From positions 28,064 to 92,063 of the forward strand of contig JASEEV010000001.1 in the NCBI GenBank assembly GCA_030019435.1: a stretch of 64,000 nt of DNA, in the 5' to 3' direction. Each line of letters opens with the position of its first letter. The first letter of the stretch is position 1. Below, one piece after another: positions 8,985 to 28,873 of the stretch. The translations under genes were made by a program, and so were the position numbers. The notes below the pieces were generated by a model. The model was not told where the DNA came from. It did no database searches and was given only the letters and a program-made list of their open reading frames with translations. The stretch comes from Methanocellales archaeon (GTDB lineage Archaea; Halobacteriota; UBA148).

Positions 8985-9084
8985 TGCGGCTGCCGGGATT
9001 CGAACCCGGGCTTCAAGCTCGCTCCGAAACCTTTTCTAAAAGTTTCTTGGGAAGCTTGAGTCCTAACCACTGGACCACAGCCGC
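8985..9084 (-). tRNA. tRNA-Gly (anticodon CCC) with a canonical-position intron of about 28 nt
   Basis: Reverse complement folds as a tRNA. Acceptor GCGGCUG/CAGCCGC; D-stem GUCC/GGAC; anticodon stem CAAGC/GCUUG with loop UUCCCA|intron|A; T-arm CCGGG-UUCGAAU-CCCGG; discriminator A. Exons sum to about 72 nt. Confidence 0.65.
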
Positions 9085-20305: not shown

Positions 20306-23300
20306 TTAAGATCTCCTCGCAACATCGAGAAGCATTCTTTGTTCAGCCCGTAGGACTGCTTCTCTGACTGACTCGACAGCATCTATGTTTGCAGATATGC
20401 TGGTTATGCCAAGCTCCACCAATTTCCTTGCCATAGAGGGAGATGAGCCAGCTTGTCCGCAAATAGATGTTTTCACGCCAGCTTTGTTGCACTCCTTGAT
20501 TACATGCTCGATTAGCTTTAGCACAGCAGGGTGATGCTCATCATATAGGTAGGCCACATTCTCGTTGTTCCTGTCAACCGCAAGCGTATATTGCGTGAGG
20601 TCGTTCGTGCCGAATGAGATGAAATCTAAGCCTTCTTCAATGAACTGATCGATAACAAGCGCTGATGCGGGCGTTTCTATCATGATTCCGAACTCGATCT
20701 TATCTAAGTCCAGGCCGGATTCAACCATGATCTGCTTTGCTTTGCGCAACTCCTTCGGATGCTGTACCAATGGAAGCATTATCCCAACATTGTCGTACCC
20801 TAGCTCATACAATTTCTTGAATGCCTGTAGTTCGAGCTTGAAATGCTCCACATCGGTTAGGTCACGTCGGATACCTCGCCATCCCATCATGGGGTTGTGC
20901 TCAACTGGCTCATCCTCACCGCCTTGCATGCTCTTGAACTCATCCGTCGGCGCATCCAGTGTTCTCACCCAGACGGATCTTGGATAAAACGCATCTGCAA
21001 CGGTGCGAATTCCCTTGACCAATTCGGCGACATATTCCTCTGATTTCCCTTCCTTGATATATAGCCGGGGATGTTTGCCCAGTCCGAGAATCATGTGCTC
21101 TATTCGCAGCAATCCTACACCATCTGCTCCGGTGGCTGCTGCCCTCTCTGCAGCCTCTGGAATGGATATGTTTACCTTGACCTCGGTGACGGTGACCTGT
21201 CTTGTTCTTGCTACGGGCGCTACAACTTGCGCTTCTTTGGCAATAACTTGCTCTAATTTTCCTTTGTACACATGTCCTTTCTCGCCATCGATCGTTACCA
21301 CCATCGCATCCTTCAGCACCCTCGTACCTTTTTTGGTACCAACGATGCACGGTATTCCAAGCTCCCTGGAGACAATGGCGGCATGACAATTGTTCACGAG
21401 GATTGGCGTCAAATGCTCTGTAAAGACTATATAGTTGTGATCGCCCTCCACTTCGATGTTGAACACCGTCTTCTCTCCAAGTTCCTTCAATTTTCGGATC
21501 CTTTGCATCCTTAAGCTGGAGTTAACGATCCTCTCTAACTCGATGTTAGATCTCCCCTTGACCAAAGGCAAGACATGTTTTTCCAGCTTGTCCGCGCCGA
21601 TTAAGAGGTTGTTGTTCACGTATGGCTTGATTTTTCCACCATTGTTCACATCGTTCACGATGCCACCGAGAATCTGACTTGCTGCAAACAGTTTAGTTCC
21701 AAGCACCTTATCACGAGGTTTGCCCTTTACCCGTTGTGTGTGTCTTAGCAGCCTATCCAAGCCCTCAACGATCTGCACGTTATAGATAGTTCGATTCTTG
21801 CTTACCAGGGGCAGTATGCCCAATCTGAGACATGCCAGAACCACTGCCTTAATCAATTCGTCACCAACATATATGTGTATTCTGCCACTTTCATGTGCAA
21901 TGTTGAACGATCCGTCACCATCGATGAACCCAACTAGGAACTTCACGATCGCATCCTCGCTCAGATATAAAATGAACTCCTCTAGATTATCTCTGATGTT
22001 GAGAAGCCTAGTGGCCGGTTTTTTCTGACTGCATATATATCGATTGGCGCTTCCAACCATTTCACGTCCTCGTATAACGCCAGAGGACACGTCTTCACCA
22101 TAATCTGTGAGCACAGTGCTAAATTCCCTATTAAACGCTTCACGAACACTGTTTATGTAGTTCAACTTTTCTGGAATGTTCTTCTGTCTAAATGTGACAC
22201 TACCTCGTCTGTTAGTCAATCTAATGTGGCCATCAGAAAATATGGCGCCAGCTATATATGCAAGATCCTCCGAGCAACCGCTAGCTCCATTGAACTCGTT
22301 GAGTGGGGTTGGAACTCTATCGACTGCAACGACTGCCTCGTTTCTGTCCAGCAGATCCTCTAGTTCTCGTTCCACCAATTTTCTGTCATCAAATGTCAAC
22401 ATTTTGTGATTCGGCGTTATTTTTAACGTATTATGCTTTGCTCTGCCCGTCTGTGATACTGCCACTTCCCAAACGTTTGAGGTCCGCCTCATCGAGCTTA
22501 AAACCCTCTTCCATTCAGGGCTTAAAGTGTCCTTGTTCACCGAGAGGACACGCACGTATTCGCCAGAACGTATCAATCTATCGAGTTTTTCTAGCTCGAT
22601 GATACCTCTGTCGGTTAGCACTCTTGTATCGCCAGTAAAGCAAGTCAATCCGCCCTCATCGGTTATGATCCCAACAGCGCGCTTCATGGCTGGAACCATA
22701 TCTGGTGTGGTCATCTTGGTGACCAAAATATCACCTTCCCCCACTCTATCCAACTCATCGAGTTTTGATACGATCTCCACGTTTCCGTAAGCAAGACCGG
22801 GCGAGGCGCCAATCCCCTCTAAAATCACTTCTCCCGCCTCTTCTGGCTTTAGCTCCTCCTCCCTTCGTTGAATGGTGGTGATTGGACGAGATTGCAACAT
22901 GTAGATTTTCTCATCCGCTATTGCCCACTCCACATCTTGCGGTATGCTATAATGGTTTTCCACGATCTCCCCAAGCTCAGTCAACTTCATCACCTCAGCA
23001 TCGGTCAAAACTGGTTTGTTCCTCATGTCATCTGGAACCTTCGTTTGGATTGTCTTTCCGGTCTTTGGGTCTTTGACATGCATGATGTCCTTGGTTGCGA
23101 TGTTACGTTGGACGATTTTTTTCGTCCTTCTGTCGACAACATAATTGTCTGGTGATATCGACCCAGACACGACCGTTTCACCTAAGCCCCAACCAGCTTC
23201 GATGATCGTTAGTGGCTCACCGCTAGTGGGATGTGAGGTAAATATTACGCCAGCCTTATCTGCATCCACCATTTTCTGGATGATGACGGAAATATTCACA

Positions 23301-23821
23301 TGCTCGTGCTCAAATCCCTGCTTCACCCTATAGAAGATCGCTCTAGCGCCATACAACGAGGCCCAACATCGCTGGACCGCTTCTACAACGGCTTCTCCTC
23401 CGCGAACGTTGAGAAATGTCTCTTGTTGACCGGCAAAGGATGCATCCGGTAGGTCCTCAGCCGTCGCAGATGAGCGAATGGCAACGAAAACATCCTCGCC
23501 CTCCCTCTTACATAATTTATCGTATGCATCTAAGATGGCTCTTTTCGTCTCATAAGGCATTTCAGCGCTGAGGATCAAGCGTTTAGCCTTTTTCTCCGCA
23601 CTCTTGAGAGCCTCAGAATCATCCACATCTATTTCCAATGAGTTGAACAGCTTTTTCGCTATCCTAGTCTCATCGAGGAATTGCCTAAATGCAGGTGCCG
23701 TCACCGCAAACCCCCTTGGAACTGGCAGCTCTGCGTTCATCATCTCGCCAAGGCTGGCGCCTTTTCCACCAACCAAGGACACATCCTTAGATCTTACCTC
23801 TTCCAACCATACGATTGTCAT
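20306..23821 (-). CDS. ppsA: Phosphoenolpyruvate synthase interrupted by an in-frame intein
   Basis: Exteins give a normal PpsA of about 753 aa (ATP-grasp N-domain, phosphohistidine domain, PEP-utilising C-domain). The conserved GGxT-SHAAI motif is split as EGGLT|intein|CHAAIVSRELGIP. Confidence 0.85.
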   Translation of the reverse strand: MTIVWLEEVRSKDVSLVGGKGASLGEMMNAELPVPRGFAVTAPAFRQFLDETRIAKKLFNSLEIDVDDSEALKSAEKKAKRLILSAEMPYETKRAILDAYDKLCKREGEDVFVAIRSSATAEDLPDASFAGQQETFLNVRGGEAVVEAVQRCWASLYGARAIFYRVKQGFEHEHVNISVIIQKMVDADKAGVIFTSHPTSGEPLTIIEAGWGLGETVVSGSISPDNYVVDRRTKKIVQRNIATKDIMHVKDPKTGKTIQTKVPDDMRNKPVLTDAEVMKLTELGEIVENHYSIPQDVEWAIADEKIYMLQSRPITTIQRREEELKPEEAGEVILEGIGASPGLAYGNVEIVSKLDELDRVGEGDILVTKMTTPDMVPAMKRAVGIITDEGGLTCFTGDTRVLTDRGIIELEKLDRLIRSGEYVRVLSVNKDTLSPEWKRVLSSMRRTSNVWEVAVSQTGRAKHNTLKITPNHKMLTFDDRKLVERELEDLLDRNEAVVAVDRVPTPLNEFNGASGCSEDLAYIAGAIFSDGHIRLTNRRGSVTFRQKNIPEKLNYINSVREAFNREFSTVLTDYGEDVSSGVIRGREMVGSANRYICSQKKPATRLLNIRDNLEEFILYLSEDAIVKFLVGFIDGDGSFNIAHESGRIHIYVGDELIKAVVLACLRLGILPLVSKNRTIYNVQIVEGLDRLLRHTQRVKGKPRDKVLGTKLFAASQILGGIVNDVNNGGKIKPYVNNNLLIGADKLEKHVLPLVKGRSNIELERIVNSSLRMQRIRKLKELGEKTVFNIEVEGDHNYIVFTEHLTPILVNNCHAAIVSRELGIPCIVGTKKGTRVLKDAMVVTIDGEKGHVYKGKLEQVIAKEAQVVAPVARTRQVTVTEVKVNISIPEAAERAAATGADGVGLLRIEHMILGLGKHPRLYIKEGKSEEYVAELVKGIRTVADAFYPRSVWVRTLDAPTDEFKSMQGGEDEPVEHNPMMGWRGIRRDLTDVEHFKLELQAFKKLYELGYDNVGIMLPLVQHPKELRKAKQIMVESGLDLDKIEFGIMIETPASALVIDQFIEEGLDFISFGTNDLTQYTLAVDRNNENVAYLYDEHHPAVLKLIEHVIKECNKAGVKTSICGQAGSSPSMARKLVELGITSISANIDAVESVREAVLRAEQRMLLDVARRS
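21389..22642 (-). mobile_element. Intein (about 418 aa) with LAGLIDADG homing endonuclease, inserted in ppsA
   Basis: Block A CFTGDTRVLTD, block B TPNHKML, two LAGLIDADG motifs (LAYIAGAIFSDGH, VKFLVGFIDGDGSF), block F FNIEVEGDHNYIV, block G PILVNN followed by +1 Cys. Codon-checked boundaries: Cys1 at 22642-22640, terminal Asn at 21391-21389. Confidence 0.8.
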
Positions 23822-28052: not shown

Positions 28053-28145
28053 AAGTTTTCTGGAGTTGTGAAAATGGTGCTAACCGTCATCACGATTTTA
28101 ATCCATATTTCTCTCATAAATCCAGAAGAAAAAGGAATAAATCCT

Positions 28146-28394
28146 TTATCGCCTTCTTCTAAGCAGATATGCAACTGCTGCTATCGTGAGAATTGCGAAT
28201 ACTGCCTCAAATCCTGGTACTGGTGGCGATGGCGTTGGTGTTGGAATGGATTCGATACTATTGTTCCCTTTAGATGCAATTAATATACATTTTTCCGGTC
28301 GCACAAAAGGATTAACACACGTCTCACAATATGTTGGATTGGATGTTAGGAGAACGGCCACAAGGGATGTAACAGTCTCTGGATCTCCAGCCAA
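28146..28394 (-). pseudogene. Orphan C-terminal fragment carrying a PGF-CTERM archaeosortase sorting signal
   Basis: Ends TPTPSPPVPGFEAVFAILTIAAVAYLLRRRR (Thr/Pro linker, PGF, TM helix, Arg tail). No ATG and no signal peptide; in-frame stop 23 codons upstream; 480 bp of non-coding DNA upstream. Confidence 0.4.
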
Positions 28395-28668
28395 TGCGGC
28401 TTTGGAAAGCCGTGGGCATCGTGCAAACCCTTCTCCTCTGCTACAAAATCCCTGGAGGGATTAATAGAACAGACTCCAAACCGCATTGGTTTCTGGTTCA
28501 CGTGGGCGAATCACCATCATGAGCCGCACTCCTGTGCAACGCATAAACCACCCTTTCCTTTTTCACCTCTAAACTCATAAGTACGCCCACAGACCATAAA
28601 AGGCTTTGGATTTTTGAAAGTTTTTTTGATAATACGTTCAAATTTAGTATAAGAATATGTTAAAATAT

Positions 28669-28682
28669 GTCAAATATTTGAC
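28669..28682. promoter_or_regulatory. Perfect 14-bp palindrome GTCAAATATTTGAC in AT-rich promoter region
   Basis: Read directly from the sequence; flanked by duplicated AATATGT. Confidence 0.3.
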
Positions 28683-28873
28683 CGAGATTCTTGTCCTTAG
28701 AATATCTTGTCATGAGTTTCCTTGTTTAATGTCGTCTGTCCATCGACTCCAGCGACAAAACCCACTCTTTCCCCCTTCAGCCACATATAGCAAACGCAAA
28801 GATTATTAAAATGAGAATCAGCTCACGAACAAGCAGAAAGATATATTTCTCGATACGATAGTTTTAACATCAA

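Follow-up and report, generated by a model that had tools for sequence, protein, structure and literature searches.

The locus examined here poses the question of what a 418-residue segment is doing directly before the catalytic histidine of a phosphoenolpyruvate (PEP) synthase, and whether that segment can leave the protein and spread between genomes. The locus lies in a stretch of 64,000 nucleotides (nt) from a Methanocellales archaeon (GenBank assembly GCA_030019435.1, contig JASEEV010000001.1, positions 28,064 to 92,063), which we will henceforth refer to as the window. In it, an uninterrupted open reading frame (ORF) of 3516 nt on the minus strand (20306..23821) encodes a 1171-residue precursor of the PEP synthase PpsA, insert included. 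The answer, which we hold to be correct with high confidence, is that the insert is an intein of class 1 in which a monomeric LAGLIDADG homing endonuclease with two motifs is nested, and that it resides in the ppsA gene of a Methanocellales-related lineage and is allelic to a known PEP-synthase intein.

The insertion site in PpsA

The predicted host protein is unambiguously a PEP synthase: it is matched by the NCBIfam models NF005057 (960 bits) and TIGR01418 (924 bits), each in two stretches of which the first stops at the insert, and by the Pfam families PPDK_N, PEP-utilizers and PEP-utilizers_C. The N-extein (22643..23821, minus strand; residues 1-393) ends in ITDEGGLT, with the NF005057 profile matched up to position 419. 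The intein (21389..22642, minus; 1254 nt) takes up ORF residues 394-811 and comprises a putative class-1 Hint domain with the endonuclease nested in it, and the C-extein (20306..21388, minus; residues 812-1171 plus the stop codon) starts with CHAAIVSRELG. With a slash marking the splice junction, as throughout this text, the boundaries read EGGLT/CFTGDTRV upstream and PILVNN/CHAAIV downstream, so that the insert separates Thr393 from a Cys-His pair. The first residue of that pair is the +1 Cys (codon 21386..21388, minus) and the second is the PpsA phosphohistidine (codon 21383..21385, minus), which align to 'tSHaaiv' of the solved structures 8a8e and 9dae. An initial annotation, made from the letters of the window, had placed a full-length intein with a LAGLIDADG endonuclease across the PpsA phosphohistidine motif at these very coordinates, with this length and these junctions, and family models, fold and alignments all agree with it; to it we add the strand.

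Taking the insert out yields a PpsA of 753 residues, the same length as the closest intein-free alleles, with a ligated junction reading ...ITDEGGLTCHAAIVSR. This spliced protein aligns with the intein-free structures 8a8e (E 3.8e-267) and 9dae without any gap across the junction, as expected of a precise, in-frame insertion. We then searched the full ORF against 5.8 billion proteins and found a 1171-residue copy that is 99% identical (P0013), many intein-free PpsA proteins (752-753 residues) in Methanocellales metagenome-assembled genomes (MAGs) in which GGLT-CHAA is contiguous, and 28 complete or near-complete PpsA proteins with an insert at exactly the same position and with identical junctions. 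The insert has no counterpart in the intein-free homologues, and a nucleophile (Cys) is present at +1. The most telling intein-free allele is locus L001 (encoding P0014), whose genes are ordered as in the window (SerA, a helix-turn-helix gene, PpsA) and whose DNA is 97-98% identical to that of the window over approximately 8.5 kb; what it lacks is precisely the 1254-nt intein, leaving 2262 nt of extein, the same length as in the window and 97.4% identical in DNA. Since an independent Logan assembly (SRR23186779, locus L006) repeats the intein-bearing arrangement at 99.4% nucleotide identity, an assembly chimera can be ruled out.

The same comparison bears on the residue after the insert. The annotation had read the +1 Cys as standing where Ser is normal, which does not apply to this lineage: the intein-free relatives that we retrieved (~90 out of ~90) read GG[LMT]T-C-HAA, and the Cys is therefore a native extein residue. 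Ser is found at +1 in other PpsA clades (e.g., those of structures 8a8e and 9dae) and in some intein-bearing alleles (SHAAIV).

The exteins are evidently kept functional. Relative to intein-free and intein-bearing relatives, L001 among them, their omega (the ratio of non-synonymous to synonymous change) was 0.04-0.20, indicating strong purifying selection on the host gene, and the precursor must therefore yield a working enzyme, which implies that splicing works. No second ppsA was found within the window, and neither was a second copy of the intein family when the window was searched with a hidden Markov model (HMM) of that family. Base composition is a weak signal here, with a G+C content of 45.1% in the intein and 49.0% in the exteins.

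Anatomy of the insert and its predicted splicing

The insert exceeded the cut-offs of four curated models, namely Pfam Intein_splicing (44.0 bits; cut-off 35.8), Pfam LAGLIDADG_3 (31.3 bits; cut-off 22.5), TIGR01445 intein_Nterm (35.1 bits; cut-off 24.5) and TIGR01443 intein_Cterm (18.9 bits; cut-off 15.6), which argues that its motifs are not a chance pattern. We read conservation from an alignment of 18 same-site inteins (i.e., that of the window and 17 others), using the established block nomenclature (PMC4031507). The places that the initial annotation had given for blocks A, B, F and G and for the two dodecapeptide motifs were confirmed. Block A, CFTGDTRVLTDRG (22604..22642, minus), opens with the presumed first nucleophile Cys1 (22640..22642), and its C1, L9, T10 and G13 are invariant (18 out of 18). 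Block B, NTLKITPNHKML (22397..22432, minus), holds the TxxH motif as T76-P-N-H79, with both T76 and H79 invariant. The first LAGLIDADG motif, LAYIAGAIFSDGH (22226..22264, minus), contains the presumed catalytic Asp137 (Y129, G132, D137 and G138 invariant), and the second, VKFLVGFIDGDGS (21908..21946, minus), the presumed catalytic Asp243, which is present in 17 of the 18 sequences (D241, G242 and G244 invariant). In block F, TVFNIEVEGDHNYIV (21425..21469, minus), position F:4 is an invariant Asn395 where Asp is the usual residue, and F:13 is His402, which is at least 90% conserved. Block G, LTPILVNN (21389..21412, minus), ends in Asn418 preceded by Asn417, and P413, V416 and N418 are invariant.

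The commonest class-1 pattern includes a penultimate His (position G:6) which, like the F:4 Asp, is an assisting residue in many class-1 inteins, and splicing without the G:6 His has been the subject of work cited in the same source (PMC4031507). The annotation was right that the penultimate residue is Asn rather than His, yet this is not peculiar to the window copy, because position 417 is hypervariable among family members (N, H, A, S, F, W, G, R, K, E or Y), several unrelated ones of which also end in -NN. The other class-1 hallmarks are all in place: Cys1, the block B TxxH, the C-terminal Asn418 followed by Cys812 (+1), and an in-frame insertion with intein-free homologues. In its sequence, then, the insert carries all testable features that define class-1 inteins and two-motif LAGLIDADG endonucleases, with the exception of the penultimate His, which is common and assisting in this class and not obligatory.

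Structure prediction gave a consistent picture. An AlphaFold2 model built on the 18-intein alignment (mean predicted local distance difference test score 92.7; predicted template-modelling score 0.92) has beta-rich segments at the two ends (approximately residues 1-107 and 377-418) and an endonuclease core at approximately residues 120-300 (about 21743..22285, minus), with more helices up to about residue 373. Helices 125-137 and 229-243 terminate at D137 and D243, respectively. The top Foldseek matches in the Protein Data Bank were all intein homing endonucleases, i.e., TliVMA (7qss; E 8.5e-19, query-normalised template-modelling (TM) score 0.71, the highest), PI-PfuI (1dq3), PI-TkoII (2cw7) and PI-SceI (1vde), with E-values from 8.5e-19 to 8e-13. 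These share the architecture of a Hint domain interrupted by a pseudo-dimeric LAGLIDADG domain, but at 13-15% sequence identity and in other hosts and sites they are non-allelic analogues. In addition, the endonuclease core was matched by I-DmoI (target-normalised TM approximately 0.64) and I-SceI, and the Hint part by the mini-inteins 6frg, 5o9i and 4gig. The model thus predicts both a Hint fold and the pseudo-dimeric alpha-beta-beta-alpha-beta-beta-alpha LAGLIDADG fold.

A further reading, namely that the 418 residues are a native, immobile, lineage-specific domain of PpsA, has its in-frame position in its favour. We consider it vanishingly improbable given the matches to curated intein and LAGLIDADG models, the likeness to the fold of solved inteins and the presence of homologous copies in RtcB, an unrelated host protein (see below). 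It is refuted by the absence of the segment from ~90 close homologues, including the syntenic allele L001.

The residues that are conserved and the established pathway of class-1 inteins lead us to infer both splicing and DNA cleavage, which would proceed as follows. After translation, Cys1 would undergo an N-S acyl shift aided by Thr76 and His79 of block B, and the resulting thioester would be attacked by the native extein Cys+1 to give a branched intermediate. Asn418 would then cyclise with the help of His402 (F:13) and without a penultimate His, releasing the intein, and an S-N shift would convert the remaining link into a peptide bond. The product would be an active PpsA of 753 residues with GGLTCHAA intact and its catalytic His one residue past the ligation point. 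Before splicing the protein should be inactive, because the insert abuts the phosphohistidine. The free intein would be expected to cut an intein-free ppsA at about ACCGATGAGGGCGGATTGACT^TGTCATGCCGCCATTGTCTCCAGG, and repair from an intein-bearing copy would then bring in the element together with short flanking tracts.

It might be argued that the insert is instead a dead remnant which no longer splices, in a ppsA copy that is a pseudogene or an inactive paralogue. The insert has neither a penultimate His nor an Asp at F:4, and it adjoins the catalytic His, so that an unspliced protein would lack activity. Against this, the 3516-nt frame is open and every essential nucleophile is present, the exteins are under the strong purifying selection described above, the synteny is that of intein-free orthologues with no second ppsA in the window, and inteins throughout the family share these non-canonical states of G:6 and F:4 within conserved host genes. 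We consequently regard a dead remnant as very improbable, and the gene is best annotated as a working ppsA with a 753-residue product after splicing, as opposed to a 1171-residue fusion or a pseudogene.

Relatives at the PpsA site and elsewhere

PEP-synthase inteins have been described at a site given as GG[TRM]T/CHAA, with approximately 30% identity as the allelic threshold (PMC10710043, PNAS 2023). The insertion site in the window is identical to that of the catalogued PEP-synthase inteins, and the window intein is 34-60% identical to all same-site inteins, Methanocaldococcus alleles included; the element is accordingly an allele of an already known intein at an already described site. The initial annotation had called such inteins rare, with a known occurrence limited to a few hyperthermophilic archaea. 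This proved too narrow, as same-site inteins are also found in MSBL1, Micrarchaeia, Woesearchaeota, Pyrohabitans, Methanocellales MAGs and Parcubacteria, with DPANN archaea and CPR bacteria thereby among the hosts. When 1.84 billion cluster representatives were searched with a profile, 53 matched at E<=1e-30, and among the best 54 profile hits, which we inspected, 37 belonged to the PpsA site and 4 to an RtcB site, with 13 left unassigned. The family is small and its members are widely scattered.

The classical member is the Methanocaldococcus PEP-synthase intein (P0046, P0049, P0054 and P0125, all labelled 'intein-containing phosphoenolpyruvate synthase' by NCBI), which we take to be the 'Mja PEP' of M. 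jannaschii listed in InBase. It occupies the same site (GGLT/C...N/CHAAI), is of class 1 with Cys1 and Cys+1, and like the window intein has two LAGLIDADG motifs, a length of 409-420 residues and no penultimate His. It differs in being 34-38% identical to the window intein, in having Phe at the penultimate position (Asn in the window), in residing in hyperthermophilic Methanococci, unlike the window, and in that the endonuclease is deleted in some alleles. Chen, Benner and Perler reportedly showed in 2000 that Mja PEP splices without a G:6 His.

The closest relatives outside Methanocellales are PpsA inteins of MSBL1 (P0015, P0017, P0019 and P0025), at the same site and with 57-60% intein identity. 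Their blocks are almost those of the window (e.g., CFTGDT[KR]VLTDRG and HLTPILV.N), but they have the canonical penultimate His (LVHN), and two of the four lack the second catalytic Asp. Given that intein and extein diverge alike in this comparison (approximately 56-60% each), there is no sign of recent exchange with the lineage of the window.

An RtcB intein is known to cluster with the PEP-synthase inteins (PMC10710043), and bacterial RtcB inteins are indeed similar to the window intein (P0002, 42% identity; P0004, 37%). That study deals with Anaeramoeba and describes neither the Methanocellales allele nor its presence/absence polymorphism nor the junction tract discussed below (PMC10710043). 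We found inteins of the family in the RtcB RNA ligases P0002, P0004, P0143, P0147 and P0162 of Patescibacteria, where the junction (...T/CF...LVKN/CHGAGR) falls between T402 and C403-H404 in the numbering of P. horikoshii RtcB. His404 is the GMP-histidine nucleophile of that enzyme. PpsA and RtcB are thus both interrupted directly before a Cys-His pair whose His forms a covalent intermediate, a likeness of sites that has already been remarked upon (PMC10710043).

Other placements were seen as well. In P0159 a related intein occupies another site in PpsA, 12 residues further downstream than the usual one and before the Cys of GIPC (SREMGIP/CFSGDTKI), suggesting that a non-allelic jump took place inside one gene. 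Two long PpsA proteins, P0047 (1671 residues; Methanocaldococcus-like source) and P0052 (1732 residues; Woesearchaeota), carry, besides the phosphohistidine-site intein, another and unrelated one in the N-terminal nucleotide-binding domain (AEDLP/S...THN/[ST]ASFAGQQ).

Searches of contigs added little to this distribution. A single-protein scan of the genomes of GTDB representatives, the window's own genome not being among them, matched only the Methanocellales MAG Yes46-10 and a PpsA from Micrarchaeia, apart from two distant inteins that are unrelated. One of the latter (L010) lies in a Paceibacterota protein (junction ...HVIRH/C) and the other (L011) in an actinomycete protein of RecA-like look (C-extein SPETTTGGRALKFY); they have only the general intein blocks in common with the PpsA allele. 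In viral contigs the scan found no relative and hence no evidence of a viral vector, and in metagenome contigs it found a single relative (50%) and no donor allele able to polarise the junction tract.

Mobility of the intein

The pair of occupied and empty alleles, i.e., the window and L001, allowed us to look at the DNA immediately around the insertion site. Of the 58 mismatches between their exteins, 11 fall within 45 nt straddling the site (about -10 to +35), with an upstream arm at -10..-1 (22643..22652, minus) and a downstream arm at +1..+35 (21354..21388, minus); the densest interval of mismatches begins 10 nt before the junction. In 100,000 permutations this density was never reached under either null model, including one with mismatches confined to third codon positions. 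Ten of the 11 mismatches are synonymous and the eleventh, in the downstream arm, is the sole amino-acid change of the tract (Ile405 in the window, Thr in L001). At approximately 24%, the tract divergence resembles that between lineages and not that within a species. The fused, intein-free sites would read ACCGATGAGGGCGGATTGACT^TGTCATGCCGCCATTGTCTCCAGG for the window type and ...GAGGGGGGTTTAACT^TGCCACGCCGCCATTGTATCGCGTGAA for the L001 type.

Such a tract can arise in several ways. One explanation is co-conversion of flanking extein DNA during homing, which would leave a tract of this kind and has been described for haloarchaeal MCM inteins (PMC10643990). Alternatively, precise loss through recombination with a foreign, empty allele would leave such a tract, as would selection for an empty site resistant to cleavage. 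Ile405 is derived relative to all 15 of the closest intein-free relatives, and elsewhere Ile is found at this position in 11 of 30 intein-bearing alleles versus 1 of 91 intein-free ones, which favours its import together with the intein.

A second line of evidence comes from Yes46-10 (GCA_030018435.1), whose ppsA is split over two contig ends (L004 and L005). Both contigs stop inside the intein (at residues 254 and 302), and NCBI has consequently annotated two partial proteins; in the Methanocellales-related lineage the PEP-synthase intein had previously been annotated only automatically and piecemeal. The contig break may reflect strain heterogeneity (i.e., a mix of intein-bearing and intein-free alleles) or a repeated intein. 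Between the window and Yes46-10 the intein is 89% (N part) and 95% (C part) identical in amino acids and 91.5-94.3% in DNA, with a synonymous divergence (pS) of 0.17-0.19, whereas the PpsA exteins are 73% and 81% identical in amino acids and 70-73% in DNA, with a pS of 0.77-0.81 (i.e., saturated). An intein that has diverged so much less than its housekeeping host gene must have moved between these lineages after their separation, and we consider it apparently recently mobile. Across the same comparison omega was 0.27 for intein residues 1-110, 0.24 for residues 111-254 (endonuclease) and 0.14 for the last 117 residues, pointing to purifying selection on the intein.

Several points nevertheless weigh against this explanation, and they concern the direction of the exchange, the endonuclease and the splicing reaction. 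With regard to direction, polarisation of the tract using L002, L003 and Yes46-10 gave a mixed result: at -7, -4 and +2 the window agrees with the outgroups, and at 8 of the 11 tract positions L001 has the state seen in the Yes46-10 flanks. Both a gain in the lineage of the window and a precise loss in that of L001 remain as candidate histories of the tract.

With regard to the endonuclease, decay is seen in relatives at the same site, both as loss of the second catalytic Asp in MSBL1 (D243N in P0015, D243V in P0019) and as internal deletions in Methanocaldococcus (P0125 and P0050, with inteins of 365 and 382 residues). Because decayed and full-length alleles share one site, the family spans all stages of the homing cycle. 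The window intein might similarly be a vertically inherited passenger late in that cycle, one that splices but whose endonuclease is no longer active. In favour of this reading, the inteins of the window and L006 differ by 6 non-synonymous and 5 synonymous changes (omega 0.35, above that of the exteins), and only three near-identical or close copies of the window variant were present in the public data searched. On the other side, the window intein keeps both catalytic Asp residues and its full 418 residues, omega in the endonuclease region is low against Yes46-10, synonymous divergence of the intein is far below that of the host gene, and differences from L001 are clustered at the homing site. 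An inactive endonuclease is for these reasons unlikely, though it deserves serious consideration. The initial annotation had called the endonuclease probably active; the conserved catalytic Asp residues, the purifying selection and the signs of recent transfer back this view only indirectly.

With regard to splicing, the reaction could be slow or conditional, as the G:6 His and the F:4 Asp, which assist it in many class-1 inteins, are both absent. Against this concern, G:6 is hypervariable and F:4 Asn invariant throughout the family, and the host genes are conserved regardless. Other archaeal inteins are known to splice conditionally in this general manner, and the window intein could, besides being selfish, act as a redox- or temperature-sensitive switch on PpsA, in which a disulfide between Cys1 and Cys+1 when this anaerobe meets oxidising conditions, or a slow third step, would hold the enzyme inactive. 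The two cysteines do flank the splice site beside the catalytic His, and the His that normally accelerates Asn cyclisation is missing. However, closely related strains live without the intein, some family members have Ser at +1, and sequence data cannot tell regulation from plain parasitism, so that we consider a conditional switch improbable. Its most specific form, a redox- or temperature-gated switch that keeps this gluconeogenic PEP synthase inactive until conditions are reducing, is a speculation to which we give little credence. If it were true, the recurrent targeting of covalent histidines (T/CHAA in PpsA, T/CHGAG in RtcB) would reflect more than DNA microhomology.

Two further features of the window were noted in passing. 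Approximately 767 nt (28064..28830), between the genes for dihydroorotate dehydrogenase and a GHMP kinase, have no counterpart in the otherwise 97-98% identical, syntenic L001, by insertion or deletion, both being possible; they contain a small ORF (28146..28394, minus) with a PGF-CTERM-like tail, PGFEAVFAILTIAAVAYLLRRRR. At 8985..9084 (minus) Rfam detected a tRNA (60.5 bits) that probably contains an intron, as archaeal tRNAs can, since its 100 nt span a 71-position model; ARAGORN reported no tRNA in the window.

Taken as an allele of the known PEP-synthase intein, the element extends the range of that intein to an uncultured, Methanocellales-related lineage with a G+C content of 46.5% and no sign of hyperthermophily in the data. 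The footprints seen at the population level illustrate the homing cycle well, though they bring no surprise. Occupied and empty alleles in DNA that is 97-98% identical, together with the junction tract and the intein of Yes46-10, nonetheless offer a setting in which the homing cycle and co-conversion could be studied in uncultured archaea. Finally, the family-wide absence of a fixed penultimate His, with almost any residue tolerated at that position, would make these inteins a useful natural series with which to study the third splicing step.

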